Both the position numbers and the translations under genes were made by a program. Shown one piece after another: positions 20,313 through 39,681 of a stretch of 64,000 bases of DNA. The notes beneath the pieces were generated by a model. That model did not search any database. It was not told the DNA's origin and was given only the letters and a program-made list of their open reading frames with translations. How positions within the stretch are numbered: position 1 is the first letter of the stretch; every line of letters starts with the position of its first letter. This stretch comes from an uncultured delta proteobacterium (GTDB lineage Bacteria; Myxococcota_A; Polyangia; Fen-1088), in NCBI GenBank assembly GCA_963796685.1, contig CAWCMR010000006.1:64001-128000 (forward strand), read 5' to 3'.

Positions 20313-20960
20313 TCAAGGGCTGGTGGGGCGCTCGGGGGCCGCTTGCGGAACGTCCATGAGCCCCTGTTGCACCACGAAGTCGGCCACCGCGGCCACGCCC
20401 ACGCCTTGTCTGATGTTGGTGAACAGGAACGGGCGCTTTCCGCGTTGCACGCGCGCATCGCGGTCCATGACCTCGAGCGAGGCGCCGACGTAGGGGGCGA
20501 GGTCGATCTTGTTGATCACCAGGAGATCCGACTTGGTGATGCCGGGGCCGCCCTTGCGCGGGATCTTGTCCCCGCCGGCCACGTCGATGACGTAGATGGT
20601 GAGGTCTGCCAGCTCGGGGCTGAAGGTGGCGGCCAGGTTGTCGCCGCCGCTTTCCACCAGAATCATATCCAACCCCGGAAAGCGTCGGATGAGGTCGTCG
20701 ATGGCCGAGAGGTTGATGGATGCGTCCTCGCGGATGGCCGTGTGCGGACAGCCGCCGGTCTCCACGCCCACGATGCGCTCCGTGGGCAAGGCGCCGCTCC
20801 TGACGAGGAACTGGGCGTCCTCTTTGGTGTAGATGTCGTTGGTGACGACGGCGATGTTGAAGCGATCGCGCAGGTGTTTGCATAGAGCGTCGACCAGGGC
20901 GGTCTTGCCCGATCCGACCGGGCCTGCGACGCCGACGCGCAAGGGTTGGTGTTCGTTCAC
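20313..20960 (-). CDS. ureG: Urease accessory GTPase UreG
   Basis: [43 protein letters not shown]. Confidence 0.97.
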
Positions 20961-20971
20961 GACAAGTCTCC

Positions 20972-21742
20972 TTAGGATCGGCAAAGCCGCGAATAGAGGG
21001 TTTCGTGCAGAGCGCTGGCGATGGCTTGGGCGGGCGCTGTGGCGCCAATATCGTCGTCGGGAAGAGCCTGGGCGCCCGCCACGGCGCCCTCGATGACCGG
21101 CAAGGACCGAGAAAGGATACGCTGAGCCGCTCCTTGGCCGAGGGGACAGAGTCGCGTGGCCGCACCCACCTGGGCTTCGGTCCACGCGAAGGCATATCCG
21201 GTCGCTGCCGAGGTCGCCGGGATCTCCCAACGGACCGCGGCCAGGGCGAACAGGGTGGCGTGGGTGACGTGCGCCGCCGTCAACCAAGCGTGGGCGCCGT
21301 CCACGCCCAGACCGTCGAGAACCCGGGCCAGCGCTCCGCCCAGGTGTCGCTCTTCCGCCTGCAGCTCGGAGCTGCCACGCGAGGCGAAGAGGAGCTCGCT
21401 CCAGCGATGGACGGCGCCGTCGTCCCCGGATGCGAACGCCGCGTGCAAGCGAAGCAGGATGGGAAGATCCAGTCTCCCCAAGGCATTCGACAGCAAACCG
21501 AGAATCCAGGCCTCAGCGGACGCCTCGTCGTTCACCCATGAAAGGGCGATGGCTTGTTCGAGCCCTTGCGAGTAGGCGAACGCGCCGATGGGGAGCGCGG
21601 GGCTGGCGAGGTGCATGAGACGCAGCAGCGGTACGCCCGCGACCCCTGGTGAGAAAGCCGACGCCGGCGCGAGCTCCGCTAGCGCGGCGATGCTAGAGCA
21701 CCGAATGGGTTGAATCGCCGGAGAATTCGATGACCTGCGCAT
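20972..21742 (-). CDS. ureF: Urease accessory protein UreF; ancestral start (21949) separated from the body by an inserted element, ATG 21742 lies inside the element
   Basis: [37 protein letters not shown]. Confidence 0.9.
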
Positions 21743-21938
21743 GTGCAAGCACTTTCATCCCCTCGCCCCGCGTAGCGGGGAGAGGGCTAGGGTGAGGGGC
21801 CGACGTCGAAGATGAAGCGATGCCCCCTCTCCCGCCGCGCTACGCGCGTCGGCCTCTCCCCGCTCGCGCGGGGCGAGGCGAAAGATCTCGGCGCTCGCAA
21901 CTGCTCGAAATTGCCGCTGTTCCAAACCGTTCGGTGTT
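21697..21938. mobile_element. 242-bp MITE flanked by CTAG with internal CCCTCTCCC/GGGAGAGGG palindromic repeats
   Basis: CTAG at 21693-21696 and 21939-21942; terminal IRs AGCACCGAATGGGTTGAA / AACACCGAACGGTTTGGA (14/18); removal restores ureF MSTSIAAL... Confidence 0.82.
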
Positions 21939-22409
21939 CTAGTGCTCATGGCGTTCCTCATGTCCGTGTCCGTGGCTGTATCCGCCGGCCTCGGGTTCGA
22001 AGGGCCGCTGTTCGACGACCACGGCCAGACCGAGCGCGCGGACCATGTCGTCGAGCACGTGGTCGTGCCCATAGGCCAGCCAGTCCGGACCGATCTGCAA
22101 GGGGACGTGCCGGTTGCCCAGGTGGTAGGCGGCGCGAGCCAAGAGGTGGCGATCCGTCGTGTGCGCCACGGACAACGTCTCCGCAATGGCCCTGACCACG
22201 ACCGGCACCCTCTCGTCGTCGTCGCAAAGACAGTCCCCTTCGCGCAGGATCGTTCCCCTGGCAAGAAACACCGCCACTTCGCGCCCATCATCGAGACTGG
22301 CGCGCAGGCGACTTTTTCGCCGAGCCTCGAACGGGAGCGTCAGCGAAGCCATGCCTCTTTCACCCACGAGGGCGGGTCTTGCACCGATCATTCTGCGCAG
22401 ATTCAACAT
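21939..22409 (-). CDS. ureE: Urease accessory Ni chaperone UreE
   Basis: [30 protein letters not shown], His-rich tail. Confidence 0.95.
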
Positions 22410-22421
22410 GGGCCTCGTCCT

Positions 22422-24130
<1,709 letters not shown>

Positions 24131-24134
<4 letters not shown>

Positions 24135-24760
24135 GCGGCCCCCTTGTCGAGGGGCCCCATCACCTCGCCGCGGAATCCCTGCACCACGCGGTCGCCGGAG
24201 AAGGCGCACAGCTCGACGGTCCGGGTTTGTCCGGGCTCGAAGCGTACGGCGGTGCCCGCAGGAATGTTCAGGCGATAGCCGCGCGTCTTCGCTCGGTCGA
24301 AGCGCAGGGCGGGATTGGTCTCGAAGAAGTGATAGTGCGATCCCACTTGGATAGGTCGGTCGCCGGTGTTGGCGACCTCGAGGGTGAGGGTGGCGCGACC
24401 CTCGTTGAGGACGATCTCGCCGGGCGTGGTCGTCACCTCGCCGGGAACGAAATGCGAAGGTTGAATGGGCTGGTGAACCGTGACCAGCTTCGTGCCGTCG
24501 GGGAACGTCGCTTCGACTTGCACCTCGGGGATCAGCTCGGCCACGCCTTCCATCACGTCGTCGGAGCCGAGGAGCTGGGTTCCGTAGGTCATCAAGTCGG
24601 CAACGCTTCGACCGTCGCGTGCGCCTTCCAGAATCGCCGCGGAGATGTACGCCACGGCTTCGGGATAATTCAGCTTCAGCCCGCGGGCCTTTCTGCGCTC
24701 GGCGAGAAGGCCGGCCGCGAAGAGGAGAAGCTTTTCTTGTTCACGAGGAAGTAGGTCCAT
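24131..24760 (-). CDS. ureA: Fused urease gamma/beta subunit
   Basis: [11 protein letters not shown]...[17 protein letters not shown] (gamma) joined in frame to PGE...[15 protein letters not shown]...TAVRFEPG (beta). Confidence 0.95.
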
Positions 24761-24774
24761 GGCTCTCCGACGAA

Positions 24775-25650
24775 TCAGGTTGACCAGATGCGGGGAAGGC
24801 AAACCGGACGACCGATGAGTGTCGGTCGCAAGATGCGCCAAGCCTTCTCGAATAGGATGCGGGCATGCTCGGCGCCGTTTCCGAGGTAGCGAAAGATCAG
24901 GGCGCCACCGACCTCGCTGGCGGAGACGAGCTCACCTTCGTCCACGCGGAGCCCGCGTAACTCGTGCAGCAGGGCTTGTCGGGTTTCGTGGGCCGGGCCT
25001 TCGTCGCTCAATCTCGGCAAAGCCGCAAGCAGTGTCCCGGTAACGGTTGCGCCCCGCAAACCCCAGGTCGCGTCTTGCATGTCGGCTGCGTAGCGCGCCC
25101 GTTCCAGGACCATGGGCCGCCCGTCGCGCCACAGCTCGAAGTGCTGTCGACAAGAGGAGCCGGCGCCGAAACGCTCGCCGCACGCGGGGCGGCCGAGGCA
25201 CAGGATGTCCCAGCCGATGAACGCGGCGGAGCCTGACAATTCGATTCGGGTCGTGAGGTGCGCGCGGGCGCCTTCGAAGAGGATGGTCTCTTGGGGCAGC
25301 CATTCGACGGCCGAGCCCGCTGCCGCTCGAACGGTTTGTACTTGGCGAGAGGTGCGACCGTCGCTGCGATAGATCTTGGTCGCCGCGGGCGAAGTGACGA
25401 GCGCGTGCGCTCCCTCCTCCACCGCGATGTCCAGCCCGAGGGCGTCCCCGGGCACGATTCCGCCGGGGGGATGCAGGATGTACGCGTGGCACACCTTGGG
25501 GCCCTCGGGGAAAAACGGTCGCTGCACCACCAGCGGTCCCTGGTGGCCGCGACGGCGCAGCTCGGTTGCACCCGCCCTGGCGGAGAAGGTCAGCGCCAGC
25601 GACGCCTTCCAAGATGAGGAAGCCGAGACGTCAACCGGCGCTGAATGCAA
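24775..25650 (-). CDS. ureD: Urease accessory protein UreD
   Basis: [52 protein letters not shown]; TTG start with GGGAG RBS inferred. Confidence 0.92.
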
Positions 25651-25984
25651 CGGGACGCTCCCAGATGACGAGCACGACGCAGCCCTCGGGACTGCTGACG
25701 TCATGGCTGCTGCCAGGCGGATTGACGACCAGCGTGCCGGCCGCATGGGTGCCTCGGGCATCGACCTGCGCGCCGTGGAGAACGTAGACGTGCTCGTAGC
25801 CTTGATGGCAGTGTCGCGGAATGGTCGCTCCCGGCGCGTATTGCAGCAGGGCCGCCGAGGGGCCGCTATCGCCCTGGCCGTAGAGGCGATGGATGCCCAC
25901 ACCGGGCCGGTAGGGAGCCCAGTCGAAGTCCGGGCTGAGAGCGCGGCGCGAAAGCTCCGAAATGACAAGCGTGTCTCCGTTCAC
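25631..25984 (-). CDS. ChrR-like single-domain cupin
   Basis: [15 protein letters not shown] and NPPGSSH metal-binding motifs; GTG start overlaps the biuH TGA (GTGA). Confidence 0.85.
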
Positions 25985-26682
25985 GCGGCTTGCAGGGCCT
26001 CCAGCAAGGCGCCCGAGTCCGAAACGGCACCGAATACGCCATTTTGCATCTTCACCATCTTGAGCGCCGCCAGGTGATTGCCGACGTCGGTGGCGGCGCA
26101 ACAATCGCCGAGCAAGAGGCACTCGTACCCGCGATCGTTGGCCTCGCGCATGGTCGTGTGGACGCAGACGTCGGTGGTGATGCCGGTGAGAACGAGATTG
26201 CGGATGCCGCGCTGGCGGAGAATGAGGTCCAGATCGGTGGCGCAGAACGAGCCCTTGCCGGGCTTGTCGATGATGGTTTCACCTGCCACGGGAGAAAGCT
26301 CGGGGATGATGTCCCAGCCCGGCTCGCCGCGAACGAGCACGCGCCCGCAGGGGCCCGGGTCGCCGATTCCCACGCCGCGGTTGCCGGGCGTCTGGCGCGA
26401 ACGCCAGCGCTTGTTGGCGGGAAGATCGGAGAGATCCGGCCGGTGCCCCTCCCGCGTGTGCAGAACGGGGAAGCCCTTGCTCCGCATCAAGGTCAGCACC
26501 TTGCGGATGGGCTCGATGCAGGCCCGGGTCAGGGAAATGTCGTAGCCGAGCAAATCGATGTAGCCGCCCTTGCCACAAAAATCCGTCTGCATGTCGATTA
26601 CGATAAGCGCGGTATTTTCTCGACCAAGATCGCCATCCCAGGGCCAGGGATAGGGGTCGGCGGGGATGAGCTGTTGTTTCAT
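25981..26682 (-). CDS. biuH: Biuret hydrolase (isochorismatase-like cysteine hydrolase)
   Basis: [54 protein letters not shown]; closely matches the Rhizobium BiuH sequence as recalled. Confidence 0.88.
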
Positions 26683-26789
26683 GCCAAAGTCCCTTTCCTA
26701 TCGGTCTTCTTGTTCATCGGGGCATCCGTGCATGCGCACGTCAGTTATGATCCGGGCCATGTTTCTCCCAGTTTTCTAAAGACCAAACT

Positions 26790-26885
26790 TGTCGTAAATT
26801 CTCACGCGCTTGCTTCGGCGTTGTTGCGCCGGGGGACAGGAGGCGGCCAAGATTGGCCCCACGCATGTCTTCACCTGTCGTAAAT
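26790..26885. promoter_or_regulatory. Direct repeat TGTCGTAAAT x2 at the biuH/atzF divergent junction (candidate regulator sites)
   Basis: 26790-26799 and 26876-26885 (second copy just inside the predicted atzF start); same 9-mer inverted at 38535-38543. Confidence 0.5.
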
Positions 26886-28715
26886 AGGGAGTGGTTCTGT
26901 CCGGCTTTGGAGGGGGTCGAGACCGGCTACGGCACGCGGCGCTTCTCGCCCACGGAGCTCATCGTGGACATGGTCGAGCGCGCCTCGACCGAGGAAGGCG
27001 CTGGGGTGTGGATTCACCGTGTGGCGAAGGACGACGTGGTCCGGAACATCAGGGACATCGAGGCGCGTCGTGTTGCAGGAGCATCCCTTCCCCTGTTCGG
27101 CGTGCCCTTCGCGGTGAAGGACAACATCGACGTGGCGGGCATGCCGACCACTGCCGCGTGTCCGGCTTTCGCCCATACCCCCAAGCGTTCGGCGGTTGCC
27201 GTCCAGCGTTTGCTCGACGCCGGGGCCATCGTCCTTGGCAAGACCAATATGGACCAGTTCGCGACGGGTCTCGTGGGGACTCGGTCGCCCCATGGGATTC
27301 CACGCAATCCCTTCGACCCTCGCTACATTCCCGGTGGCTCCAGCTCGGGTTCGGCGGTCGCCGTGGCCACCGGCATGGCCACCTTCGCGCTTGGCACCGA
27401 TACGGCGGGCTCGGGCCGGGTTCCTGCGGCCTTCAACAACATCGTCGGGATGAAGCCGAGCCATGGCGCGATCAGCACCACGGGCGTCGTTCCCGCATGC
27501 CGCTCCCTCGATTGTGTATCGGTGTTCGCCTTGTCCTGCAGCGACGCGTGGCGAGTATTCGAAGTCGTCCGTCATTTCGACCCGACCGATCCTTTCGCCT
27601 GTGAATGGCGCGATATTGCATCTCTGGGTGCGAGACCTCGTGGTTCCGCGTTTCGATTCGGACTACCGGACGCCGAACACCTGGAGTTCTTCGGCGACGA
27701 GCTGGCTCGCGCTGCCTTCGCCCAAGCCGTGGAGAGGTTGCGTACCCTGGGCGGTCAAGCGGTTTCAGTCGATTTCTCCCCTTTCCGGGAAGTCGCGCAG
27801 TTGCTCTACGGCGGGCCCTGGGCTGCGGAGCGATTGGTTGCCACGGGCAAAGTCCTGGGTGAATGTCCCGACGCTCTCGACCCCGATGTGAGGGCCATCT
27901 TGCGCGATGCTTGCCGCTTCGAGGCCAAGGATGTCTTTCTCGCCCAGGAGACCTTGCGGCTACTCGACCGGCGTACGCAATCCACCTGGCGCGAGGTCGA
28001 CGTCCTGGTAACGCCCACCGCTCCCACCATCTATACGATCGACCAGATCCGGGCCGAACCACTCGGCCTCAACAGCAACCTCGGCTACTACACCAATTTC
28101 GTGAACCTGCTCGACCTCTGCGCGCTGGCGGTTCCCGCCGGGTTTCGTTCCGATCGGCTACCGTCCGGGATTACGCTGCTCGCGCCCAAAGGGAACGATG
28201 CCGGGTTGGCCATGCTGGGAGCCCGCTTTCATGCTCTCAGCAGCCATAGCGTAGGGGTCTTTCAACGGGCTCCATCCGGGCGCGATGCGCTCCCGACGGT
28301 TGCACCGGAACAGGAAGGCATCTGCATTGCGGTGTTGGGAGCCCATCTCTCGGGAGAGCCGCTCAATCATCAGCTCGTCGACCTGGGGGCGAGCTTCGTG
28401 AGAAGCGCCCGGACCGCATCTCGCTATCGCTTGTACGAGTTGCCGAACACGACTCCACCCAAGCCCGGGTTGGTTCGTTGCGAGAACGACGAGGGGGCCG
28501 CCATCGAGCTGGAGATTTGGCGGATGTCACCCGCGGCCTTTGGCTCCTTCGTCGCTCGCATAGCCGCGCCCCTTTGCATCGGGAGCATCGAGCTGGCCAA
28601 TGGGGAGCGTGTTCAGGGCTTTCTCTGCGAGCACCACGCTGTTGCCCACGCCCGGGACATTTCCCTATATGGCGGCTGGCGCTCGTATCGAAGGTCGTTG
28701 CCAATAGGGCCGTAA
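26865..28715 (+). CDS. atzF: Allophanate hydrolase
   Basis: Amidase signature AVKDNID, GKTNMDQFATGLVGTRSP, PGGSSSGS, DTAGSGRVPA; C-domain GAHLSGEPLN, PPKPGL, GGWRSY. Confidence 0.95.
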   Translation: MSSPVVNREWFCPALEGVETGYGTRRFSPTELIVDMVERASTEEGAGVWIHRVAKDDVVRNIRDIEARRVAGASLPLFGVPFAVKDNIDVAGMPTTAACPAFAHTPKRSAVAVQRLLDAGAIVLGKTNMDQFATGLVGTRSPHGIPRNPFDPRYIPGGSSSGSAVAVATGMATFALGTDTAGSGRVPAAFNNIVGMKPSHGAISTTGVVPACRSLDCVSVFALSCSDAWRVFEVVRHFDPTDPFACEWRDIASLGARPRGSAFRFGLPDAEHLEFFGDELARAAFAQAVERLRTLGGQAVSVDFSPFREVAQLLYGGPWAAERLVATGKVLGECPDALDPDVRAILRDACRFEAKDVFLAQETLRLLDRRTQSTWREVDVLVTPTAPTIYTIDQIRAEPLGLNSNLGYYTNFVNLLDLCALAVPAGFRSDRLPSGITLLAPKGNDAGLAMLGARFHALSSHSVGVFQRAPSGRDALPTVAPEQEGICIAVLGAHLSGEPLNHQLVDLGASFVRSARTASRYRLYELPNTTPPKPGLVRCENDEGAAIELEIWRMSPAAFGSFVARIAAPLCIGSIELANGERVQGFLCEHHAVAHARDISLYGGWRSYRRSLPIGP

Positions 28716-28945
28716 AGATACCGAGAAGGGGTCAAGTTATGCCTTTGCACATGTTACCTACCTTTTGGTGGAACGAAATCCGTCGTTAACATCGCCATTG
28801 TATATTCACACATGTCATCCGAAGTGGGACCCCCAAGGTCCGAATTCAATGGCAACAGCATAGGTAAAGGTACTTTCCAAACAGCGCACACGGCTCAATC
28901 GCAAGCAACCGAGGGCTGCGTGTCAACTAGAGGAGAAAAGAACAC

Positions 28946-30253
28946 ATGCGATTACCCTTCCGACAAGGCGTGTCATTCAAGCTCGTGCTCGTAGGCGGCC
29001 TGGGCGCAGTTGGCTTCATGGTGGCCAGTGCCAGTGCGCAAGAGGCGACGGCGCCCGCTGAAGCGGTACCATCGGCCACGGCGGGCGCGAGCCCCGAACC
29101 GGCCGCGGCCGCTCCGGCTACACCGCCTGCGCCTCCTGCACCCGCGATGCCGGCACCGCCTCCGCCGCCCACGATGCCGCCGCAGCCTCCTCCGGCCATG
29201 GCGGCGCCGTCGATGGCTCCGAGCGTGCCGTTGAAGGAGGAGCCCGTGCCCATCAAGACGGTCTTCGGTCTACGGACATCCGGTCGCATCCAGGGCGGCA
29301 GCGATCCCAAGAAGCTGAACGATGTCAGTCTCGACACGCTTTACCTCGAGGCCCGCTTCAGCGGGGCCGTGGACAAGTACTTCGGATGGCAGGCGAACTT
29401 CAATGGCAACGCCAAGCCGGCGGGAACCAGCGGTCCAGCCAATATCATGGACATGATTCTGAAGATCGACGCCGACGATGCCTTCCACGTGTGGGCCGGC
29501 CGATTGTTGGTGCCGTCGGACCGCTCGAATTTCAGCGGCCCCTTCTTCATGAGCCCCTGGAATTACCCCGGTGTCTATTCCGTCGGTTCTTTGGGAGGAT
29601 TCATCGGTCCCAAGACCGGGGCCACCGGTCGCGACGATGGCGTCGTGGTGTGGGGTCAGGTCCTGAAGGGGAAGGGGAAGTACTTTCTGGGTGCCTTCAA
29701 TCTCGACAATGTCCAGCAAAGTCCCCTCTATTCGGGGCGCATCAACATCGCCCTGCTGGGCGAGGAACCGGGGTTTTGGGGCAGCAGCACCTATTACGGC
29801 GACAAGGATATTGTCGCCATTGGTGGCGCCTACCAATACCAAAAGCACGGTTCGGGGACGATCGATCCGGCAACGCTCGACGGCGACGTCAATTTGAATA
29901 TCGTCATTGGAGACCTTCTGGCGGAGAAGAATCTGCCCGGCGTGGGAACCTTCTCGCTCGAGGGGACATACTACCATTTCGACAAGGGCAATCCGCTCGC
30001 CAAGCAGGCGTTCTATGTTCTGGCCAGCTTTCTCACTGAGGACTACGTGGGCATAGGGAAGCTACAACCCCTGGTCAGGTGGCAGCAAACGTCGCCCCAG
30101 TCTGGAGGCACGAAGATGACCATGCTGGACGCCTTCGTGACCTACGTGATCCACAGCTACGACCTGAAGCTTACGGCAGGGTACCAGCGCACGGATCTTG
30201 GCAACTCGGTGGTGGGCAATGCCATCCAAGTCGGCTTTCAAATACAGGAATAG
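28946..30253 (+). CDS. Outer-membrane porin, FmdC-like (urea/amide), with Pro/Ala-rich N-terminus
   Basis: Signal peptide, HVWAGRLLVPSDRSNFSGP, GRDDG, beta-strand pattern ending QVGFQIQE; directly upstream of urtA. Confidence 0.7.
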   Translation: MRLPFRQGVSFKLVLVGGLGAVGFMVASASAQEATAPAEAVPSATAGASPEPAAAAPATPPAPPAPAMPAPPPPPTMPPQPPPAMAAPSMAPSVPLKEEPVPIKTVFGLRTSGRIQGGSDPKKLNDVSLDTLYLEARFSGAVDKYFGWQANFNGNAKPAGTSGPANIMDMILKIDADDAFHVWAGRLLVPSDRSNFSGPFFMSPWNYPGVYSVGSLGGFIGPKTGATGRDDGVVVWGQVLKGKGKYFLGAFNLDNVQQSPLYSGRINIALLGEEPGFWGSSTYYGDKDIVAIGGAYQYQKHGSGTIDPATLDGDVNLNIVIGDLLAEKNLPGVGTFSLEGTYYHFDKGNPLAKQAFYVLASFLTEDYVGIGKLQPLVRWQQTSPQSGGTKMTMLDAFVTYVIHSYDLKLTAGYQRTDLGNSVVGNAIQVGFQIQE

Positions 30254-30303
30254 ATCAACCCTTCACAAGAAACGATGTTTTTCACTCCACGGGAGGAATT
30301 CCA

Positions 30304-31680
30304 ATGCGTGTTTCGTTGGCAGCAATGACATTGAGCCTGTCGCTCGCTTCGGCGAGCGGATGCAACAAGACCGAGGAGGCGAAACCGGCTGCCATGGAGC
30401 CGGCCAAGCCCGCGGCACCGGCACCGGCACCGGCCGCCGTCGCGGATACCGGACCCATCAAGGTCGGCATCCTTCACTCGCTTTCCGGAACCATGGCCAT
30501 CAGCGAGACCTCTCTCAAGGATGTCGCCTTGATGGCCTTGGAGGAGATCAACGCCTCGGGCGGGTTGCTCGGTCGCAAGATCGAGCCGGTGGTGGTGGAT
30601 CCGGCTTCGAACTGGCCGCTGTTCGCGGAGAAGGCGCGTGACCTGCTTCAGAATCAGAAGGTGGCGGTGGTCTTCGGGTGCTGGACCTCGGTGTCGCGCA
30701 AGTCGGTCTTGCCCGTGTTCGAGGAATTGAACGGCCTTCTCTTCTATCCCGTGCAATACGAGGGCGAGGAGTCGTCGTTCAACGTCTTTTACACCGGCGC
30801 CGCGCCCAACCAGCAAGCCATACCCGCGGTGGAATACCTCATGAGCAAGAAGGGGGGCGGGGCGAAGCGCTGGGTGTTGCTCGGCACGGACTACGTCTAT
30901 CCCCGCACCACGAACAAGATCCTGCGCTACTTCCTGCATTCGAAGGGCGTGTCGGACGACGACATCATGGAGAAGTACACGCCCTTTTCCCACAACGACT
31001 ACCAGACCATCGTCGCCGACATAAAGAAGTTCGCGGCGGGCAAGCGCACCGCGGTGGTCTCGACGATCAACGGCGACTCCAACGTCCCCTTCTACAAAGA
31101 GTTGGTCAACCAAGGGATCAAGGCGGAAGACATCCCGGTGGTGGCGTTCTCCGTCGGGGAAGAGGAGCTGCGCGGCATCGACACCAAGCCGTTGGTTGGA
31201 CAGCTGGCGGCGTGGAACTACTTCATGTCTCTCGACAACCCCGAGAACAAGGCCTTCATCGCGAAGTGGAAAGCCTACGTGAAGAAGAACAACCTGCCGG
31301 GTGGCGACAAGCGGGTGACCAACGATCCGATGGAAGCCACGTACATCGGCATCCAGATGTGGGCCCATGCCGTGGAACAGGCGAAGACCACGCAGGTGGA
31401 TGCCGTCCGCCAGGCCATGGGTTACCAAAAGGTCAAAGCGCCGGACGGTTTCGAGATCGAAATGGACGCCAAGAACCACCATTTGCATAAGCCGGTGTTC
31501 ATTGGCGAAGTAAAGGCCGATGGTCAATTCCACGTGGTGTGGAAGACCGACGGGCCGATCCGAGCCCAGGCCTGGAGTCCGTACATTCCGGACGATGCCA
31601 AGAAGGTTGCCGATTGGACTTACCCCTGGGTTTGCGGCAATTGCACGGAGCCGAAGTACGCAGCTACGGCGGGACTCTAG
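30304..31680 (+). CDS. urtA: Urea ABC transporter substrate-binding protein
   Basis: IKVGILHSLSGTMAISE, GCWTSVSRK, YPVQYEGEE, GAAPNQQ, DYVYPRTTN. Confidence 0.95.
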   Translation: MRVSLAAMTLSLSLASASGCNKTEEAKPAAMEPAKPAAPAPAPAAVADTGPIKVGILHSLSGTMAISETSLKDVALMALEEINASGGLLGRKIEPVVVDPASNWPLFAEKARDLLQNQKVAVVFGCWTSVSRKSVLPVFEELNGLLFYPVQYEGEESSFNVFYTGAAPNQQAIPAVEYLMSKKGGGAKRWVLLGTDYVYPRTTNKILRYFLHSKGVSDDDIMEKYTPFSHNDYQTIVADIKKFAAGKRTAVVSTINGDSNVPFYKELVNQGIKAEDIPVVAFSVGEEELRGIDTKPLVGQLAAWNYFMSLDNPENKAFIAKWKAYVKKNNLPGGDKRVTNDPMEATYIGIQMWAHAVEQAKTTQVDAVRQAMGYQKVKAPDGFEIEMDAKNHHLHKPVFIGEVKADGQFHVVWKTDGPIRAQAWSPYIPDDAKKVADWTYPWVCGNCTEPKYAATAGL

Positions 31681-33357
31681 GTGTGGAGTAGCAGGATAGA
31701 ACTGCCGCTGCGGGCTCGACGCCGGGAGCCTATTCCCGGCGTCGCGTCCCCACGCTGCGCTCGTCGCACCTGGCAAGCGCTGATTGTCATGGTTGCGCTG
31801 ACCTTCACCGCCGAAGCAAGGGCGGCCGAATCGTTGGCGGACACGCTTCGTGGCCTGGCCTCCGACGACGTGGACGCGGTCGGACACACCCTGGACCTGC
31901 TGGCCGGCCGCGGGGATGCCACCGTCGTTCCCGCCATCGAGGCCTTGTGTGACGACCGGCTTCGGGTGGGGGCGAATGGCACGGTCTACTTGAACGCACC
32001 CGGAGAGCACACGCTGCGAGATGCCATCTCGGGTGCGCTCGTCGAGCCGCAGCCTTCGGATACGCGCGAGGTGGACGTCAACAACCAAGTCCGGCGGCTC
32101 GCCCTGCCTGTCTTGGCCCAGCTCAAGCTGAAGGCGCCTCAGGAGACAGCGCGATTGGCCGCAGCCCAGGAGCTCGACGAGAGAGGGAGCGACGAGGCCT
32201 TGCCGGTGCTGCGGTCGGCCTTGCAGCAAGAGAAGAGCGCGCGCGTTCGCGACGCCATCGCCTTGGCCATTGCGCGATTCGACCTGCAAAGCGATGTTCC
32301 CGCGCGCCAGTTGGCGGGCCTGGACGTGGCGAGAGACCTCGGTTCGCCATCGCTCAAAGGCATCCTCGGGCGACTGGCCGCACCCAGCGTCGCGAATGCC
32401 GAGGTCCGCAAAAGGGCCAAGCAAGCCCTGGACGCCATCGACAGCCGCCAGAGGCGGATCGATGTCATCGCGGCGCTGTTTCACGGCCTCAGCCTAGGCA
32501 GCATCTTGCTTCTGGCGGCCCTCGGGTTGGCGGTCACCTTCGGCCTGCTCGGCGTCATCAACATGGCCCATGGGGAAATGCTGATGCTCGGCGCCTATAC
32601 GACCTATGCGGTGCAAATTGCATTCGAGCGATGGCTGCCCGGTGGGCTTCGATTCTACTTGTTGGCCGCCGTTCCGCTGTCGTTCCTCACGACGCTCTTC
32701 GCGGGAGTCGTGCTCGAACGGACGGTGATTCGATTCCTCTATGGGCGGCCCCTGGAGACGCTCTTGGCAACCTGGGGCATCAGCTTGGGGTTGATACAAA
32801 CCGTGCGTCTCGTCTTCGGAGCCCAGAATGTCGCCGTTGCCAACCCGTCATGGCTGAGCGGTGGTTTCGAGATCGCCCACGGCTTAGTCCTGCCCTACAG
32901 CCGCATCGCCGTCATCCTGTTCGCCATCGTCGTGACCGTCGGCGTGTGGGCGCTGTTGCAGCGCACGCGCCTCGGGTTGCAAGTGCGCGCGGTGACGCAG
33001 AATCGCGCGATGTCCGCGTGCCTAGGCATTTCGACCTCACGCATCGACATGTGGATGTTTGGCCTGGGTTCGGGCATCGCAGGGCTGGGGGGAGTCGCGC
33101 TGTCGCAAATCGGCAACGTCGGCCCCGAGCTCGGCCAGACCTACATCATCGATTCCTTCATGGTGGTCGTGGTGGGTGGGGTAGGGCGTCTGGCCGGCTC
33201 CATCGTCGCCTCTCTGGGCCTGGGTGTGGTGAACGAAATCCTCGAACCCTTTGCCGGCGCGGTGCTGGGAAAGATCGCGGTGCTAGTCCTCATCATTCTA
33301 TTCATCCAACGGCGCCCACAGGGGCTCTTCACCCTCAAAGGGCGCATCGAGGCTTGA
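31681..33357 (+). CDS. urtB: Urea ABC transporter permease with N-terminal helical-repeat domain (start uncertain)
   Basis: INMAHGE, LYGRPLETLLATWG, RAVTQNR, GNVGP, QRRPQGLF. Confidence 0.92.
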   Translation: MWSSRIELPLRARRREPIPGVASPRCARRTWQALIVMVALTFTAEARAAESLADTLRGLASDDVDAVGHTLDLLAGRGDATVVPAIEALCDDRLRVGANGTVYLNAPGEHTLRDAISGALVEPQPSDTREVDVNNQVRRLALPVLAQLKLKAPQETARLAAAQELDERGSDEALPVLRSALQQEKSARVRDAIALAIARFDLQSDVPARQLAGLDVARDLGSPSLKGILGRLAAPSVANAEVRKRAKQALDAIDSRQRRIDVIAALFHGLSLGSILLLAALGLAVTFGLLGVINMAHGEMLMLGAYTTYAVQIAFERWLPGGLRFYLLAAVPLSFLTTLFAGVVLERTVIRFLYGRPLETLLATWGISLGLIQTVRLVFGAQNVAVANPSWLSGGFEIAHGLVLPYSRIAVILFAIVVTVGVWALLQRTRLGLQVRAVTQNRAMSACLGISTSRIDMWMFGLGSGIAGLGGVALSQIGNVGPELGQTYIIDSFMVVVVGGVGRLAGSIVASLGLGVVNEILEPFAGAVLGKIAVLVLIILFIQRRPQGLFTLKGRIEA

Positions 33358-33359
33358 GC

Positions 33360-34466
33360 ATGATGGCGCGAATTCGTGGCCGGCTGTTGGAGATGCACAG
33401 CTCGCGAGCATGGCTTGGCGTGTTTTTGTCGGCGACAGTATTACTGGTGGTGCTGCCGCTTTCCAACGCACTGATACCGGCGAGATCGGCGCTCCACCTC
33501 CCCGACTACTTGGTCCCGCTGCTCGGCAAGTTTCTGTGCTTTGGACTTGCCGCCTTGGCCGTGGATCTCATCTGGGGATTCGCGGGAATTCTTAGCCTCG
33601 GTCACGGGCTCTTCTTCGCGCTCGGCGGCTATGCCATGGGGATGTACCTCATGCGCTCCATCGCCGGAGAGGGTGTCTATCGAAGCGCGCTGCCGGACTT
33701 CATGGTGTTCCTGGACTGGAAGAGCTTGCCTTGGTACTGGCATGGATTCGAGCACTTCGCCTTTGCCGTGGCGGCGGCCCTTATCGGCCCGGGCTTGCTT
33801 GCATTCGTCTTCGGCTACTTTGCATTTCGCTCGAAGATCAAGGGCGTCTACTTCGCCATCGTCACCCAGGCGCTGACCTACGCGGCGATGTTGCTCTTCT
33901 TCCAGAATGCCGCCGGATTCGGCGGCAACAATGGCTTGACCGATTTCAAACACATCCTCGGACACTCGCTGCGGGCGCCCTCGACCCGGCTGGCGTTGTA
34001 CGTGGCTTCCGGATTGGCGTTGCTGCTCGGATACCTGGCATGCCGCTACGTCGTCACCAGCAAGTATGGGCGCGTGCTCACGGCCATTCGCGATGCCGAG
34101 CTCAAGGCCCGCTTCTGTGGCTACGAATCCACGCACTTCAAACTGTTCGCTTGGACATTCTCGGCCATGTTGTGCGCCCTGGCCGGTGCCCTGTATGTCC
34201 CGCAAGTAGGGATCATCAATCCCAGCGAGATGCAGCCATCGAATTCGATCGAGATGGCCATCTGGGTGGCCGTGGGTGGCCGTGGCAGCCTGGCCGGCGC
34301 GGTGCTCGGCGCCTGGCTCATCAACGGCGGCAAGAGCTGGCTCACCGCTGCGTTTCCGTCGGCGTGGCTCTACGTCCTTGGGGCGCTTTTCATCCTGGTG
34401 ACGCTGTTTCTGCCCAAAGGCCTGGCAGGGGTATGGTCGAACCTGGCGAGGCGCAGGGGAAAGTGA
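33360..34466 (+). CDS. urtC: Urea ABC transporter permease
   Basis: LSLGHGLFFALGGYAMGMYL, LPDFMVFL, GVYFAIVTQA, GGNNGLTDF, PQVGIINP. Confidence 0.93.
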   Translation: MMARIRGRLLEMHSSRAWLGVFLSATVLLVVLPLSNALIPARSALHLPDYLVPLLGKFLCFGLAALAVDLIWGFAGILSLGHGLFFALGGYAMGMYLMRSIAGEGVYRSALPDFMVFLDWKSLPWYWHGFEHFAFAVAAALIGPGLLAFVFGYFAFRSKIKGVYFAIVTQALTYAAMLLFFQNAAGFGGNNGLTDFKHILGHSLRAPSTRLALYVASGLALLLGYLACRYVVTSKYGRVLTAIRDAELKARFCGYESTHFKLFAWTFSAMLCALAGALYVPQVGIINPSEMQPSNSIEMAIWVAVGGRGSLAGAVLGAWLINGGKSWLTAAFPSAWLYVLGALFILVTLFLPKGLAGVWSNLARRRGK

Positions 34467-35347
34467 TGCGCGACGGAAGAGAGAGCTTCGTCGTCGGCGG
34501 CCTCCGTCGCGCCGGGTCTTCGGCCAAGGCCCTCGGCTTGGCCGGGGACGTCGCGTCGCCGCCCATCCAGGCAGAGTCGTCGCTGCACGCTTCGACTTCC
34601 AAGCACGCCAAGCTCGTACTCTGGGTGGAAGAGGTCACGGTGAGCTTCGACGGCTTCAAGGCGCTCGACGATTTGACCTTGACCCTGGAACGGGGCGAGC
34701 TTCGCTGCATCATCGGTCCCAACGGCGCTGGCAAGACCACGCTCATGGACGTCATCACGGGAAAGACCCGGCCGGATCATGGCGCGGTCTATCTGGAAAA
34801 CCGCCTGGTGGACTTGACGGCGCTGTCCGAGCGCGAGATTGCGGCACTCGGCATAGGACGCAAGTTTCAACGGCCGACCGTCTTCGGCGGCCACACGGTA
34901 CACGAGAACTGCGAGCTCGCGTTGCGCGGAAACAAGGGTGTCTTCCATAGCCTGTTCGGACGCATGTCCAAGGCCGAGCGCGAGCGCATCGACGAGGTGC
35001 TCGAAACGGTGGGGCTATCGGACCGGCGGCACGAGAGAGCCGGGCTCCTGGCCCATGGGCACAAGCAGTGGCTGGAGATTGGAATGCTGCTGGCCCAGGA
35101 GCCGAAGGTCCTGCTCGTGGACGAGCCGGTGGCGGGAATGAACCACGTCGAGATGGAGCGGACGGCCGCGCTGCTCAATCGCTTGGCGGGCGAGCACACC
35201 GTGGTGGTCGTGGAGCACGACATGGAATTCATCCGTCAGATCGCGCGCCAGGTGACGGTCTTGCACGAGGGCAGGGTGCTCGCGGAAGGTCCGATGGAGA
35301 AGATCCAGAACGACCCGCGGGTCATCGAAGTGTATCTGGGGGCCTGA
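34466..35347 (+). CDS. urtD: Urea ABC transporter ATPase
   Basis: GPNGAGKTT, GIGRKFQRP, HGHKQWLEIGM, DEPVAGM, VIEVYLG. Confidence 0.93.
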   Translation: MRDGRESFVVGGLRRAGSSAKALGLAGDVASPPIQAESSLHASTSKHAKLVLWVEEVTVSFDGFKALDDLTLTLERGELRCIIGPNGAGKTTLMDVITGKTRPDHGAVYLENRLVDLTALSEREIAALGIGRKFQRPTVFGGHTVHENCELALRGNKGVFHSLFGRMSKAERERIDEVLETVGLSDRRHERAGLLAHGHKQWLEIGMLLAQEPKVLLVDEPVAGMNHVEMERTAALLNRLAGEHTVVVVEHDMEFIRQIARQVTVLHEGRVLAEGPMEKIQNDPRVIEVYLGA

Positions 35348-35348
35348 C

Positions 35349-36068
35349 ATGCTCGAAATCACCGGCATCAATCAATACTACGGCGAAAGTCACACGCTAT
35401 GGGACACGCGACTGGAGGTGCCCGCGGGCGGGTGCACGTGTCTCATGGGGCGCAATGGGGTCGGCAAGACGACGTTGCTCAAGGTCATCATGGGGCTTCT
35501 GCCCGTCCGGGACGGGCGGATTCAGTTCGGCGAGCAGGACTTGGCGGGCCGGCGCGCCGAGGTGCGGGCGCGGCTGGGCATCGGCTACGTGCCGCAAGGC
35601 CGCGAGATCTTTCCACAGTTGACCGTCGAGGAGAATCTGAGCATCGGCTTGCCCGCGCGGGCTTCGCGCGAAAGGCCCAAGGGCGAAAAGAGCAAGCAGG
35701 ACGTCTTCGAGCGCATCTTCGACCTGTTTCCGGTGCTCAAGAAGATGCTTTACCGACGGGGTGGCGATCTTTCGGGCGGCCAGCAACAACAACTTGCCAT
35801 CGGGCGTGCTTTGGCCGTCGATCCCAAGCTGTTGATCCTGGACGAGCCCACGGAAGGCATTCAGCCCAATGTTGTCCACGACATAGGCGACGTCATCATG
35901 CGCCTCAATCAGGAGGCCGGCATTGCCGTGCTGCTGGTCGAACAGAAGCTACCTTTCGCCCGCCGGGTGTCGCGAAACTTCTGCATCATGGACCGCGGAC
36001 GAACGGTTGCCGCGGGGGCCATGTCCGACCTCGGCGACGATCTCGTCCGCCAACACCTGACGGTGTAG
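35349..36068 (+). CDS. urtE: Urea ABC transporter ATPase
   Basis: YYGESH, GRNGVGKTT, YVPQGREIF, LSGGQQQQ, DEPTEGIQP. Confidence 0.94.
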   Translation: MLEITGINQYYGESHTLWDTRLEVPAGGCTCLMGRNGVGKTTLLKVIMGLLPVRDGRIQFGEQDLAGRRAEVRARLGIGYVPQGREIFPQLTVEENLSIGLPARASRERPKGEKSKQDVFERIFDLFPVLKKMLYRRGGDLSGGQQQQLAIGRALAVDPKLLILDEPTEGIQPNVVHDIGDVIMRLNQEAGIAVLLVEQKLPFARRVSRNFCIMDRGRTVAAGAMSDLGDDLVRQHLTV

Positions 36069-36090
36069 GGGCGGGTTTCAAACCCGCCCC
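36065..36090. repeat. GTAG-headed REP-like palindrome, possibly a bidirectional terminator between urtE and the permease
   Basis: GTAG overlapping GGGGCGGGTTT-C-AAACCCGCCCC (perfect 11-bp IR, 36068-36090). Confidence 0.65.
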
Positions 36091-36102
36091 TCTGTCCGGT
36101 TG

Positions 36103-37743
36103 CTACCCCACTGGCTCTCGATGAAGCGCAACCGCCGCGGGGGCAAGGACCGCGTGGGCAACCTCGGCGCCGCCCGACTCCTCGAGCGGCAGAACCGCCT
36201 TGGGCACGGCCACGGCGAACTTGGAACATGCGAGCAGAAGGGCGCCCACGGCCAGATAGCTCGCGGCCACCACCGGCGTCTGGCCGAAACCGATCGCCTC
36301 TCCGTGCATGAAGCCGAAGAAGGTCAAGGTGGCGCCGACGAGCGAGAAGGCCGCGGCCTTCTTGAAGTTGCGATCGATGATGAAGACGCCGATGGCGCCC
36401 AAGACCAACCCCGCGAGAATGGACCCTCCGCCCAGCACCGCCAGGCCGTGGTAGAGCACGCCGTTTTGGCCCAGTTTGTCCAGACCCACGGTGGCGGCGT
36501 TGGTGCCCGCGGCGATGAGGGAATTGTCGATTTGCAGCTTGCCCCAGGCCGCCACGTGGGGCGTAAGGGCAAGGATGATGGCAGGGGCATGACTCTTCGG
36601 CGTTTCCTGGAAGGCCTGTGAGCCGATGAGCATGCCGATGTAGAGAAGAATGGGAGAGATGGCCACGACCGGGATGACCGACACCATCAGGGAAATGATC
36701 CCGAACCACGACAACACGATCACCGCTATCCCGGTCGCGGCCGAATAGCCGATACGCCCGCCCATCGCCTTCCATCCTGGATGTCCGATGTAGACGGCGT
36801 TGATGAAGGGGTTACCCATCAAGCAACCGATGAGACTGACCACGCCGTCCGCGGTCAACACGCGCGTGGTGGGGAAGCTGTCGCCGGCCACGGCGGCGCT
36901 CTCTACATTGTCGATGGCCTCGACCAGGTCGTAGATACCGAAGGGGATCGCCGTGACCAGGATGACGCCCAGGAACTTGAAGCCGGAAAAGACGTGCCCG
37001 ACGGCTGGAATGGGAAAGGCGAAGCCGAAGTTCTGGAAGGACTCCCTGACCTTGGCCAGGCTCATTCCGCCGTAGTCCAGCCCGAAGGCGTTCGATCCCC
37101 ACGCGATGAGGGTACCCACGGCGATGGCCACCAAGCCCGCCGGGATGCCGCGGAAGTAGCGTACACCCCCGAACCAGCTGACCAGGATGACGGCGAAGCA
37201 CACGATGCCGATGACCGGGGTCATGAACATTTCCAGCGCGGGCCTCATCGAGATGAAGGCAATCGACACGCCGGCGAGCGTGCCGAGCAGCGCCGCCCGG
37301 GGCGTGATCTTGCGAATCACGGGCGCCACGAAACCGCCAACCATCAGGACGAAGCTCTGAATGAAGACCCACGTCAAGCCCGCTTCCCAGCCCTTGACGG
37401 GATCCCCCGTCTTGCTGGCGATGGGCAGCATGATGACGAAGGTGACCACGAACATGTGGGGCACGCTGATCCCAGAGGGCAGGGCGCACACGTCCTTGCG
37501 GCCGGTTTTGGCCGCGAGCTTGTAGGCCAGCCGCGCGTAGTAGAGCGTGCTCAGGCAGAGCATGAGTCCGGTCGCCGGCAGGATGCGCCCGAACACGAGG
37601 TGGTCGGGCATCTTGAGGACAAAGCGTAACAGGCCGGTCAGGACCAGCAGGTTGACGAGAATATTCGTTCCGAAACCAAAGAAGGCATTCCAGTCTCCGG
37701 GGGTCCAGAGGCGTGGTTTTGCGGGACTTACGGTGGTGTGCAT
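36103..37743 (-). CDS. NCS2/AzgA-like permease, candidate triuret/biuret importer
   Basis: Many TM segments; WTPGDWNAFFG, ALPSGISVPH, NVESAAVAGD, VYIGHPGWKAMGGR; directly downstream of trtA. Confidence 0.8.
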   Translation of the reverse strand: MHTTVSPAKPRLWTPGDWNAFFGFGTNILVNLLVLTGLLRFVLKMPDHLVFGRILPATGLMLCLSTLYYARLAYKLAAKTGRKDVCALPSGISVPHMFVVTFVIMLPIASKTGDPVKGWEAGLTWVFIQSFVLMVGGFVAPVIRKITPRAALLGTLAGVSIAFISMRPALEMFMTPVIGIVCFAVILVSWFGGVRYFRGIPAGLVAIAVGTLIAWGSNAFGLDYGGMSLAKVRESFQNFGFAFPIPAVGHVFSGFKFLGVILVTAIPFGIYDLVEAIDNVESAAVAGDSFPTTRVLTADGVVSLIGCLMGNPFINAVYIGHPGWKAMGGRIGYSAATGIAVIVLSWFGIISLMVSVIPVVAISPILLYIGMLIGSQAFQETPKSHAPAIILALTPHVAAWGKLQIDNSLIAAGTNAATVGLDKLGQNGVLYHGLAVLGGGSILAGLVLGAIGVFIIDRNFKKAAAFSLVGATLTFFGFMHGEAIGFGQTPVVAASYLAVGALLLACSKFAVAVPKAVLPLEESGGAEVAHAVLAPAAVALHREPVG

Positions 37744-37795
37744 GATTTCTCCCTTGTCGACGTGATGGGACCTTTCATTGTCGTGTTCACGACCT

Positions 37796-38464
37796 TCACG
37801 CAATCGCGGTCAATACGCTGGCCGAGTCGGTGACCCAGCCGAAGATTCCTCCTTGAGCTTTGATCATTCGCAACCCGACTTCGTGAAACTCGGGGAAGTA
37901 CGAGCCGCAACAGTCGCTGGGCACGAGGCAACGGTAGCCGCGATCGTTGGCCTCGCGCACCGTCGTGTGGACGCAGACCTCGGTCGTCACGCCACAGACG
38001 ATCAGGTTCTCGATTTGGCGGTTCTGCAGGATCGAGTGCAGATCGGTCGCGTAGAAGGCGCCCTTGCCCGGCTTGTCCACCACCGGTTCGCCTGGCTTCG
38101 GGTATAGGGCAGGCACGATGTCGTGTCCGGGCTCGCCCCGGACGAGAATGCGCCCCATGGGCCCAAGCGCACCGATACGCATGCTGGGTACGCCCCGTTC
38201 CACCTTGGCCTTGGGGGCGTCGGACAGATCCGGACGATGGCCCTCGCGGGTATGAACAATCAGCATGCCCCGCTTGCGCGCACCCGCGAGCAGCGCCTTG
38301 CAGGGTTCGACGGCGGCGTTCAGCAGGGAGACTTTGTTCCCCAGGGTCTCTCCGAATCCGCCCGGTTCGAGAAAATCACGCTGCATATCGATGATGAGGA
38401 CCGCGGTCCGGTCGATGTCGATGGGGACGGCTTCGGGTTCGGCGCTGACGACGGTTGTGGCCAT
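37796..38464 (-). CDS. trtA: Triuret hydrolase (cysteine hydrolase)
   Basis: DMQRDFLEPGGFGETLGN, GPMGRIL, GVTTEVC, GSYFPEFH, AQGGIFGW; TrtA-type rather than BiuH-type residues as recalled. Confidence 0.78.
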   Translation of the reverse strand: MATTVVSAEPEAVPIDIDRTAVLIIDMQRDFLEPGGFGETLGNKVSLLNAAVEPCKALLAGARKRGMLIVHTREGHRPDLSDAPKAKVERGVPSMRIGALGPMGRILVRGEPGHDIVPALYPKPGEPVVDKPGKGAFYATDLHSILQNRQIENLIVCGVTTEVCVHTTVREANDRGYRCLVPSDCCGSYFPEFHEVGLRMIKAQGGIFGWVTDSASVLTAIA

Positions 38465-38529
38465 GGTTTCGGCTCCCTCGTAATGAGGACTAGCCTGGTC
38501 CGCAATTGGTTTCGTCGGCTTTTCGGTGC

Positions 38530-38543
38530 CGTAAATTTACGAC
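38530..38543. promoter_or_regulatory. Palindrome CGTAAATTTACG overlapping GTCGTAAAT, upstream of trtA
   Basis: Perfect 12-bp AT-cored palindrome (38530-38541), 66 bp upstream of the trtA ATG. Confidence 0.5.
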
Positions 38544-38709
38544 GAAGTCTCGTTGTGCAGGGAGACGCGGCAATAGAGCGTCTCGTTTCTTGCCCGCGGG
38601 AATGCCAGCCGGTAAAGCGAGCGCCAATTGCGGGTTTCCGGAAAGTTACTTTTTCGACCTGAGCTTCATGCAAGTTGCTCTATCTGGATCCCCGAGCAGG
38701 ATAGTTGCC

Positions 38710-38985: not shown

Positions 38986-39681
38986 AAGTCTTCTCCCAGC
39001 CGATCGATCTGCGCGTAGGCGAAGCGCAGCCAAACCTTGATTCTTTGCCGGTCTGCCCAACTGAAGGCGCCCCCGGCAAAGCTCGGATTGTTGGCGGCGG
39101 CCCAGTAGCTGGCATCATGGCGGTCCATCTTCTGCATGGCCGAGGCCTGGAGCTTCCGGCAACTCGAGGACCATTGCCCCCAGCGCACCGGCCTTGGTGC
39201 TCGTCGTGGACTGATCGAAGAGCGAGAAATCCTTGCCACGACCCAGATTCTTCACGGCGCAGACTCGGGCCGAGGCGCCGTAGCGCTCGAGAAGCCGATC
39301 GAGCGTCAGAACGGAATCCTTGCCGTCGTCCATGACATGCCAGAACACGACGCCGACGCCGCTTTCACGCGCCAGCTCCAACACCGCCACATCCGCGATC
39401 CATCTCGACAGCGGACGATCGCTCTGAGCCGGCAAATCGACCAGCACGCGACGATCGGTTTCGGTGGCCAAGGTCAAGATTTCGTCGGCGCTGTCCGGGC
39501 GTTCCAGGTCGACGGGCCGGGTGTATTCCGCGTAGTGTCGCAGGAGCGCGCCGTGCGAGGCATCCGCATCCAGCGCCTGAAACGGCAGCCCACGGTCGAT
39601 CAGATACTGCGCGCACAGGCGAGCCACCACCGACTTGCCGACGCCACCCTTTTCGCCGCCGATGAAGTGAATCTTGCTCAT
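38982..39681 (-). CDS. ParA/MinD-like P-loop ATPase (MobD-like family); +1 frameshift near 39151
   Basis: IHFIGGEKGGVGKS, LVDLPAQ; C-terminus MQKMDRHDASYWAA...RQRIKVWL in the shifted frame. Confidence 0.75.

Follow-up and report, generated by a model that had tools for sequence, protein, structure and literature searches.

A probable nitrogen-scavenging cluster for triuret, biuret, allophanate, and urea in a Polyangia-like myxobacterium, with a conserved cupin gene between biuH and ureD

The DNA analyzed here, referred to as the window, is a stretch of 64 kilobases (kb; contig CAWCMR010000006.1, positions 64,001 to 128,000, of assembly GCA_963796685.1). Positions 20313-38464, in window numbering, carry a cluster of 16 genes that appears to serve the use of triuret, biuret, allophanate, and urea as nitrogen sources. 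The cluster is not a single operon, because it comprises three blocks of opposite orientation, which probably represent four transcription units. One minus-strand block contains biuH, a cupin gene, ureD, a fused urease gamma/beta gene, ureC, ureE, ureF, and ureG; a plus-strand block that diverges from biuH contains atzF, a porin gene, and urtABCDE; and a second minus-strand block, convergent with urtE, contains a trtA-like hydrolase gene and a permease gene. Taken as a whole, the cluster is quite likely to be a regulon for nitrogen scavenging that a Polyangia-like myxobacterium has inherited vertically. Its genes are as follows.

20313-20960, minus strand: ureG (TIGR00101, 339.5 bits against a cut-off of 204)
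20972-21748, minus strand: ureF (PF01730), start uncertain and possibly further downstream
21939-22409, minus strand: ureE (NF009751, 184.1 bits against a cut-off of 144)
22422-24134, minus strand: ureC, urease alpha subunit (TIGR01792, 965.5 bits against a cut-off of 680)
24131-24760, minus strand: fused urease gamma/beta subunit (NF009671, 314.7 bits against a cut-off of 243)
24775-25650, minus strand: ureD (PF01774), probable TTG start, overlapping the end of the cupin gene by 20 nucleotides
25631-25984, minus strand: single-domain metal-binding cupin of 117 residues (Cupin_7 in Pfam), start codon overlapping the biuH stop
25981-26682, minus strand: biuH, biuret amidohydrolase (NF050097 above its cut-off; BiuH-type residues)
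26868-28715, plus strand: atzF, two-domain allophanate hydrolase (TIGR02713 above its cut-off), divergent from biuH, start uncertain
28946-30253, plus strand: probable outer-membrane porin (O/P-like) with a Pro/Ala-rich linker (ExtI model, expectation value (E) 4e-14, below the cut-off)
30304-36068, plus strand: urtABCDE, urea ATP-binding cassette (ABC) transporter (TIGR03407-03411, all five above cut-off), with urtA at 30304-31680, urtB extending to 33357, urtC at 33360-34466, urtD at 34466-35347, and urtE at 35349-36068
36103-37743, minus strand: membrane permease, distantly NCS2-like, of a family annotated 'regulator' (Atlas lead; plasmid relatives)
37796-38464, minus strand: trtA-like triuret hydrolase of a permease-linked subclade (best PDB match 6XIX; six TrtA signature residues)

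An earlier note on this DNA had listed the two hydrolases, AtzF, urease, the porin, UrtABCDE, and the permease as contiguous over 18 kb. Family scores, Pfam matches, and coordinates bear out the gene list, and all the genes that it named are intact and lie near where it placed them; what it lacked was the cupin gene and the division of the cluster into oppositely oriented blocks. The absences that it reported are also confirmed. No urea carboxylase was seen among the 29 and 61 open reading frames of the window scanned against NCBIfam and Pfam, and a tblastn search of the full window at E 1e-5 returned no homologue of atzD (cyanuric acid hydrolase), trtB/atzH, atzE, atzG, GntR, or LysR, in agreement with its statement that the cluster holds neither a cyanuric acid hydrolase nor a regulator gene.

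BiuH and TrtA are distinguished by six positions, at which Phe35, Asn41, Ala134, Glu160, Tyr187, and Ile205 are the TrtA-specific residues in the available part of PMC7948467. The window BiuH (NF050097, 399.5 bits against a cut-off of 370; 73.8% identical to BiuH of Rhizobium 3841) retains the Asp-Lys-Cys triad and the substrate Gln and has the alternative residue at all six (Tyr35, Tyr41, Ser134, Asp160, Thr187, and Val205). Its position 39 is Leu, the residue in 12 of 70 operon BiuH sequences, the other 58 having Met. The TrtA-like protein has Phe35, Asn41, Ala134, Glu160, Tyr187, and Ile205, together with Gln202 and the triad Asp24/Lys129/Cys162; it scores 271.6 bits on the BiuH model, which is below the cut-off, and matches TrtA (6XIX, 276.5 bits) best in the PDB, with BiuH (6AZO) at 235.8 bits. 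GuuH presumably carries Glu where both window hydrolases keep Gln. AtzF (TIGR02713, 785.7 bits against a cut-off of 511) contains amidase and AH_C domains and is 50% identical to AtzF of Pseudomonas ADP. All six discriminating positions are as expected in each hydrolase, which upholds the TrtA-BiuH-AtzF assignment made previously, and the reactions would be those known from the homologues. Allophanate decays to urea and CO2 according to the accessible text of PMC6219798, and it is plausible that the cluster captures both fates of this intermediate. Purine oxidation as the source of triuret is a hypothesis of the TrtA paper (PMC7948467, available part).

The urease set is complete, with structural subunits, the gamma and beta subunits being fused, and UreD, UreE, UreF, and UreG. 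Three junctions overlap: the biuH stop with the cupin start, the end of the cupin gene with the probable start of ureD, and the gamma/beta stop with the ureC start. Because junctions in this block overlap or are very short, the biuH-cupin-ure genes are likely to be co-transcribed. The ureE-ureF gap is 276 nucleotides in the window and about 42 nucleotides in the closest relative, L004 (loci from other genomes are designated by L numbers), which does not have the following insert.

21700-21938, no strand assigned: insert of palindromic sequence separating ureE from ureF (folding z -6.3; none of 200 shuffles equally stable)

An Rfam match to 5_ureB_sRNA (23699-23985) was rejected, since it is antisense inside ureC and probably reflects coding conservation.

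The distribution of the biuH-ureD arrangement was surveyed in a genome scan in which an alignment of 43 cupin sequences retrieved 276 relatives, of which the best 80 loci were kept. In nine of these 80 loci ureD adjoins the cupin gene, and urease genes occur in those nine only; all nine are myxobacteria-like, six being titled Polyangia or Polyangiaceae and three unclassified proteobacteria. The other myxobacterial loci L071, L073, and L080 have no fusion. Seven of the nine fused loci keep nupA between biuH and the cupin gene, with further bmp/nup genes upstream in six of these seven, and the remaining two have a compact layout like that of the window. The leading position of biuH in the urease operon, which the earlier note had considered unusual, is real and recurs in related genomes, but appears to be derived: biuH is first because the upstream bmp-nupBC genes and nupA were lost. 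Fusion of a biuret operon to ureD followed by loss of transporter genes would be the simplest history. What the fusion is for can be read in another way, to which we give almost an even chance: that it is a regulatory convenience only, placing urease under a strong nitrogen-starvation promoter. Urease could then mainly serve Urt-imported urea, and allophanate would contribute little flux. In favor of this reading, the window has an intact AtzF, the Urt genes are adjacent with the same promoter box before their unit, and 71 of the 80 cupin loci are without any urease gene. Against a purely regulatory fusion, the decay of allophanate to urea and CO2 is on record (PMC6219798, accessible text), and the fusion is kept in nine genomes whose UreD proteins are only 45-79% identical to that of the window.

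The cupin encoded between biuH and ureD gives an AlphaFold2 model with a predicted local distance difference test (pLDDT) score of 94. His59, His61, Glu65, and His95 (numbered as in the 118-residue query), which we take to be the usual cupin metal site, are invariant in 85 of 85 cupin sequences, as are Tyr50, Gln74, Asp76, Cys103, and Trp109. The cupin of Rhizobium 3841 is 41% identical. A biuH or trtA gene lies within 8 kb of the cupin gene in 77 of the 80 loci, the three exceptions having less than 1.5 kb of upstream flank each and two of them showing nupA, and trtB/atzH is found in none of the 80. Conversely, five of six biuH-nupA-trtA operons that lack the cupin gene, one of the six having been chosen by a trtB search, contain an AtzH-like (trtB-like hpxZ) gene, which in three of them directly follows trtA, the slot taken by the cupin gene in rhizobia; the protein in this slot of L085 belongs to PF11533. 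Among plasmids, the cupin (E 1e-12) occurs in 139 records, 120 of them from Rhizobium, and the AtzH-like gene in 52, none from Rhizobium; the only certain overlap is Salipiger, where the AtzH-like gene is 15 kb away in an atzG-atzE-hpxZ operon. Twenty-one longer proteins among 150 listed profile matches were scanned for fusions, and included one of the cupin with a TrtA-type hydrolase and one with AH_C (the AtzF C-terminal domain), each a single record that could be a read-through error.

This pattern makes the cupin a tentative candidate, to which we give somewhat less than an even chance, for a carboxybiuret decarboxylase unrelated to TrtB and acting in its place. Spontaneous decarboxylation had been assumed previously, and the possible catalyst between biuH and ureD was missed. 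The half-life of carboxybiuret is about 20 min when the step is spontaneous (PMC7948467, available part), and in the accessible text of PMC6219798 the step in Rhizobium 3841 is described as solvent-mediated. The cupin is not TrtB itself, since it matches Cupin_7 only and not PF11533, and TrtB groups with AtzH/HpxZ (supplement of PMC7948467, available part). It was also rejected as a ChrR anti-sigma factor (TIGR02451, 45.3 against 124.5 bits, in the C-terminal half only), and a role as urease nickel chaperone is unlikely because 71 of the 80 cupin loci hold no urease. In the literature searched we found neither the cupin nor the promoter box described below, and no text match joining a biuret hydrolase with a cupin; the one paper listed for a cupin together with allophanate decarboxylation is unrelated, and the Myxococcota papers listed mention neither GlnR nor biuret. 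Figures, as well as Aukema 2020, Tassoulas 2021 (AEM), and Robinson 2018, any of which may mention either the cupin or the link to urease, were outside the search.

Several further features of the cupin loci were observed. Several GenBank plasmid records label the cupin 'allophanate hydrolase' (for example L101:8953-9294), which looks like a misannotation. Fourteen of the 80 loci, all titled cyanobacterial (L015, L022, L031, L034, L042, L043, L046, L048, L053, L054, L058, L062, L076, and L082), have a stand-alone AtzF C-terminal domain and no amidase domain in the locus; PF21986 was confirmed for that of L022. The Salipiger atzF (L098) consists of the amidase domain only. A nitrilase-family 'formamidase' (L001:8952-9968) recurs in biuH operons, being present in 17 of the 80 loci. 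Its substrate may be formylurea or formylbiuret, which would point to another natural entry compound for the pathway.

Uptake would involve the porin, the permease, and Urt. Atlas clusters of Myxococcota related to the porin have Porin_O_P in 20-28% of their members. Its location recalls the fmdC porin found with urtABCDE (bioRxiv 10.1101/138586, available part), a porin for urea and short amides beside urea uptake genes, to which it is likened by context. The permease is 65-77% identical to genes that directly follow trtA-like hydrolase genes in four plasmid loci and is a probable triuret importer, as judged from this association. Its description as NCS2-like draws on an Atlas neighbor at 0.89 with 172 features in common and on 38-45% identity to proteins annotated as xanthine permeases; it has no Pfam match, including PF00860, and no NCBIfam match at E 1e-3. 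The annotation of this family as 'regulator' in plasmid records appears to be erroneous. A short GTAG-started hairpin (36066-36089) lies between the convergent urtE and permease genes and may be a shared terminator. Terminator counts are at the chance level (15 versus 14.7), and a scan for the sigma-70 consensus gave 0 sites.

A common promoter element precedes biuH and the porin-urt unit, with a weaker match before trtA, at the following positions.

26761-26798, minus strand: GlnR-box-like box before biuH, KTTAC-N17-GAAAA-N6-GAAAC, with a TATAA-like element about 11 nucleotides on; top matrix score in the 64 kb
28753-28790, plus strand: box before the porin-urt unit; second-ranked site in the 64 kb
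38509-38649, minus strand: box-like repeats before trtA, TTTAC-n6-GAAAA-n6-GAAAC at 38535 and GTAAC-n6-GAAAC at 38649

The matrix was trained on the bmp promoters of six relatives, the porin sites being outside the training set, and it ranks the biuH site first (25.9), the porin site second (17.5), and the trtA site third (11.3). In 30 simulated windows the highest first score was 23.0, the highest second score was 17.1, and the mean third score was 11.4; the trtA site is thus at chance level by score and weaker than the other two. The same box precedes bmp in L011, L018, L025, L071, and L083 and biuH in L004 and L005, that is, bmp in the long form of the operon and biuH in the short form, and it is kept before the porin gene in L004, L011, L025, and L071. 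A fixed pattern occurs 13 times in the 254 kb of myxobacterial loci, on each occasion ahead of a bmp, biuH, or porin gene, and 0 times in 1.39 Mb of other loci. The box resembles the actinobacterial GlnR consensus gTnAc-n6-GaAAc-n6-GtnAC-n6-GAAAc (PMC10704036, available part) in letters and spacing. An exact match to a GlnR-type site lies before trtA (38649), and the biuH and porin sites show partial architecture. A similar 16-mer, GTnAC-n6-GAAAC, likewise an exact match, precedes the pstSCAB-phoU operon (51730-51745, plus strand), where it is possibly a PhoB/PhoP-type site, so the box may reflect OmpR-family sites in general. No GlnR/OmpR-type regulator was found among the open reading frames of the window that were scanned. 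A 9-mer that occurs three times in the cluster was rejected as a palindromic operator: one copy, at 26877, is not found in L004, and the other two belong to the larger box, read on its reverse strand.

The host is probably a myxobacterium, as proposed in the earlier note. Among the best 120 matches of the window chorismate synthase, the only one named to an organism is from a Polyangia bacterium (82%), and the window BiuH falls in a 13-row clade (99% support in the Shimodaira-Hasegawa-like approximate likelihood ratio test, SH-aLRT) that is mostly Myxococcota. The cluster appears to be resident and vertically inherited rather than a recent island, because its G + C content (63.9%) is close to that of the sequence outside it (64.7%) and because 14 kb of it (82% nucleotide identity) is also present in L004, along with a gene of the flank; nor does it have a tRNA gene. 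A MarR gene (18901-19374) was set aside because it lies outside the region shared with L004.

In the proposed working of the cluster, triuret would enter through the porin and the permease and would be cleaved by TrtA to ammonia and carboxybiuret. Carboxybiuret would be converted to biuret and CO2, perhaps with acceleration by the cupin in place of TrtB, or else spontaneously. BiuH would then convert biuret to ammonia and allophanate, AtzF would release the last two ammonia molecules, and urease would take the urea imported by Urt and any formed by decay of allophanate. The units would be coordinated through the shared box, with its 11-base pair (bp) periodicity, which an activator of the OmpR/GlnR type, with its gene elsewhere, probably recognizes. 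The present layout may have arisen from an ancestral bmp-nupBC-biuH-nupA-(trtA)-cupin operon that fused to ureD in this lineage and then lost transporter genes.

A number of points weigh against this scheme. It is drawn from sequence; the dedicated importer is missing, in that tblastn found no BMP-type transporter in the window; the box columns were chosen and the pattern refined after the window's own sites had been seen; and the genome scan was centered on the cupin and covered only 10-kb flanks, with many loci ending at contig ends. The TrtA-like protein is 55.8% identical to Rhizobium TrtA and has His at position 164, which is Gln in 68 of 68 operon TrtA sequences. It belongs to a separate clade, lying inside the TrtA-like clade (76 rows, 98% SH-aLRT) and outside the operon-TrtA subclade (69 rows, 99%) of a quick tree built without 6XIX itself. 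His164 is found in all six members of the permease-linked sister group, which is followed by the same permease, and we know of no assayed member of this subgroup. These features, the separate transcription unit, and a 65% identical relative on Escherichia coli plasmids that accompanies fdrA/arcC genes with no biuH nearby would fit an enzyme for another ureide, the cluster then being one for biuret and urea with an unrelated neighbor. We consider this improbable, in view of the retention of all six published TrtA determinants and the occurrence of the same hydrolase near biuH-cupin in L072, L073, and L083. Neighbors of the permease-linked hydrolases, moreover, include atzE/atzH/atzF in three of four plasmid loci, and AtzE and AtzH consume carboxybiuret (PMC6219798, accessible text). 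Triuret hydrolysis by the TrtA-like protein is likely because of the six determinants and these neighbors. The E. coli plasmid gene (in the region L097:20001-27211) is present in at least 78 Escherichia records and sits with fdrA, DUF1116, arcC, an AH_C-like gene, and a cytosine permease gene.

For the cupin, fold searches returned generic cupins with no decarboxylase standing out, the operon of L086 has neither the cupin nor trtB, and the independent cupin/trtB contrasts are few because three trtB operons share one clade of the hydrolase tree. The cupin gene comes after biuH in 59 of the 60 loci whose upstream flank is 3.5 kb or longer and after trtA in 50 of 66; in Salipiger, biuH-cupin occurs with no trtA. 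This tighter link to biuH than to trtA is not what a carboxybiuret decarboxylase requires. It would suit a role of the cupin in decarboxylating allophanate to urea and so channeling the BiuH product to urease, as would its place between biuH and ureD in the window. Full atzF genes are present in just 12 of the 80 cupin loci, none is annotated within 10 kb of Rhizobium 3841 biuH, and the fate of allophanate in that strain is stated as unknown in the accessible text of PMC6219798. In Agrobacterium and Mesorhizobium operons, however, the cupin gene directly precedes atzF, with which its product would compete, and the cupin occupies the trtB slot and in one record is joined to a TrtA-type hydrolase; we regard allophanate decarboxylation as the least probable of the roles considered. 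Less doubtful, though still unlikely, is a place off the main path, as a non-catalytic ligand sensor, metal carrier, or accessory subunit. Among solved structures a ChrR-type cupin comes closest (Z 14.2, root mean square deviation 2.9 over 104 residues), and the cluster lacks a regulator gene, both of which would suit such a role. The complete four-ligand metal site and the invariant Tyr, Gln, Asp, Cys, and Trp argue against it. GntR or LysR regulators, moreover, co-occur with the cupin in rhizobial loci, and in 71 of 80 loci there is no urease that would need nickel.

Elsewhere in the window, pstA appears to be split over two frames (53932-54666 and 54476-54772; span 53932-54772), by a frameshift or a sequence error. 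Nested long inverted repeats with arms of 69 and 42 nucleotides occupy a stretch without a clear gene (7184-7815), and a TraL/ParA-like P-loop gene (39681-39115), preceded by a MinD-like gene (region 39115-39784), ends abruptly and may be truncated.

The cluster shares TrtA, BiuH, and AtzF homologues with signature residues with the TrtA-TrtB-BiuH-AtzF triuret pathway of Herbaspirillum BH-1 and Rhizobium 3841 (PMC7948467, available part), and the Rhizobium operon has the same cupin family after trtA. It differs in lacking trtB, GntR/LysR, and a BMP-type ABC transporter in the 64 kb searched by tblastn, in having a trtA that is a separate unit and falls in the permease-linked clade, and in the fusion of biuH to the urease operon. 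The colocation of trtA, biuH, and atzF with a full urease cassette in ammonia oxidizers is in print (PMC12625717, available part): urease there is 'nearby on the same contig' and bmpA-nupABC is present, whereas in the window urease is in the same apparent operon, with the cupin. In comammox clusters trtB is absent, and an unidentified enzyme is left open in the available part of that paper. Relative to the TrtB/AtzH/HpxZ decarboxylases (PF11533), the cupin is likewise small, has the same operon slot, and is proposed for the same type of reaction, but belongs to an unrelated fold family, that of metal-binding cupins. The box shares with that of actinobacterial GlnR (PMC10704036, available part) the 5-bp sites, 11-bp spacing, letters, and location before urease and nitrogen-uptake genes, but it occurs in a different phylum and the second of its four sites is usually degenerate.

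The cluster is thus a new layout of a known pathway and less unusual than first thought, and mainly widens the range of that pathway to myxobacteria and shows operon fusion in progress. A broader proposal, which we advance with some reserve as having rather less than an even chance, has two parts. The members of this cupin family would be metal-dependent decarboxylases, not described before, that act on N-carboxy intermediates (carboxybiuret or, failing that, allophanate) and take the place of TrtB in the biuret operons of Myxococcota, Alphaproteobacteria, and cyanobacteria; among these would be the model locus of Rhizobium 3841, for which the step has been termed spontaneous. In addition, nitrogen scavenging in Polyangia would be driven from a GlnR-like box of a kind described until now from actinobacteria. 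The cupin is a small protein in well over a hundred biuret operons for which there is now a clear hypothesis; if it is a decarboxylase, it would fill the missing step of pathways without trtB and provide a second fold for the reaction. The promoter box offers an initial way into the study of how Polyangia control nitrogen use.

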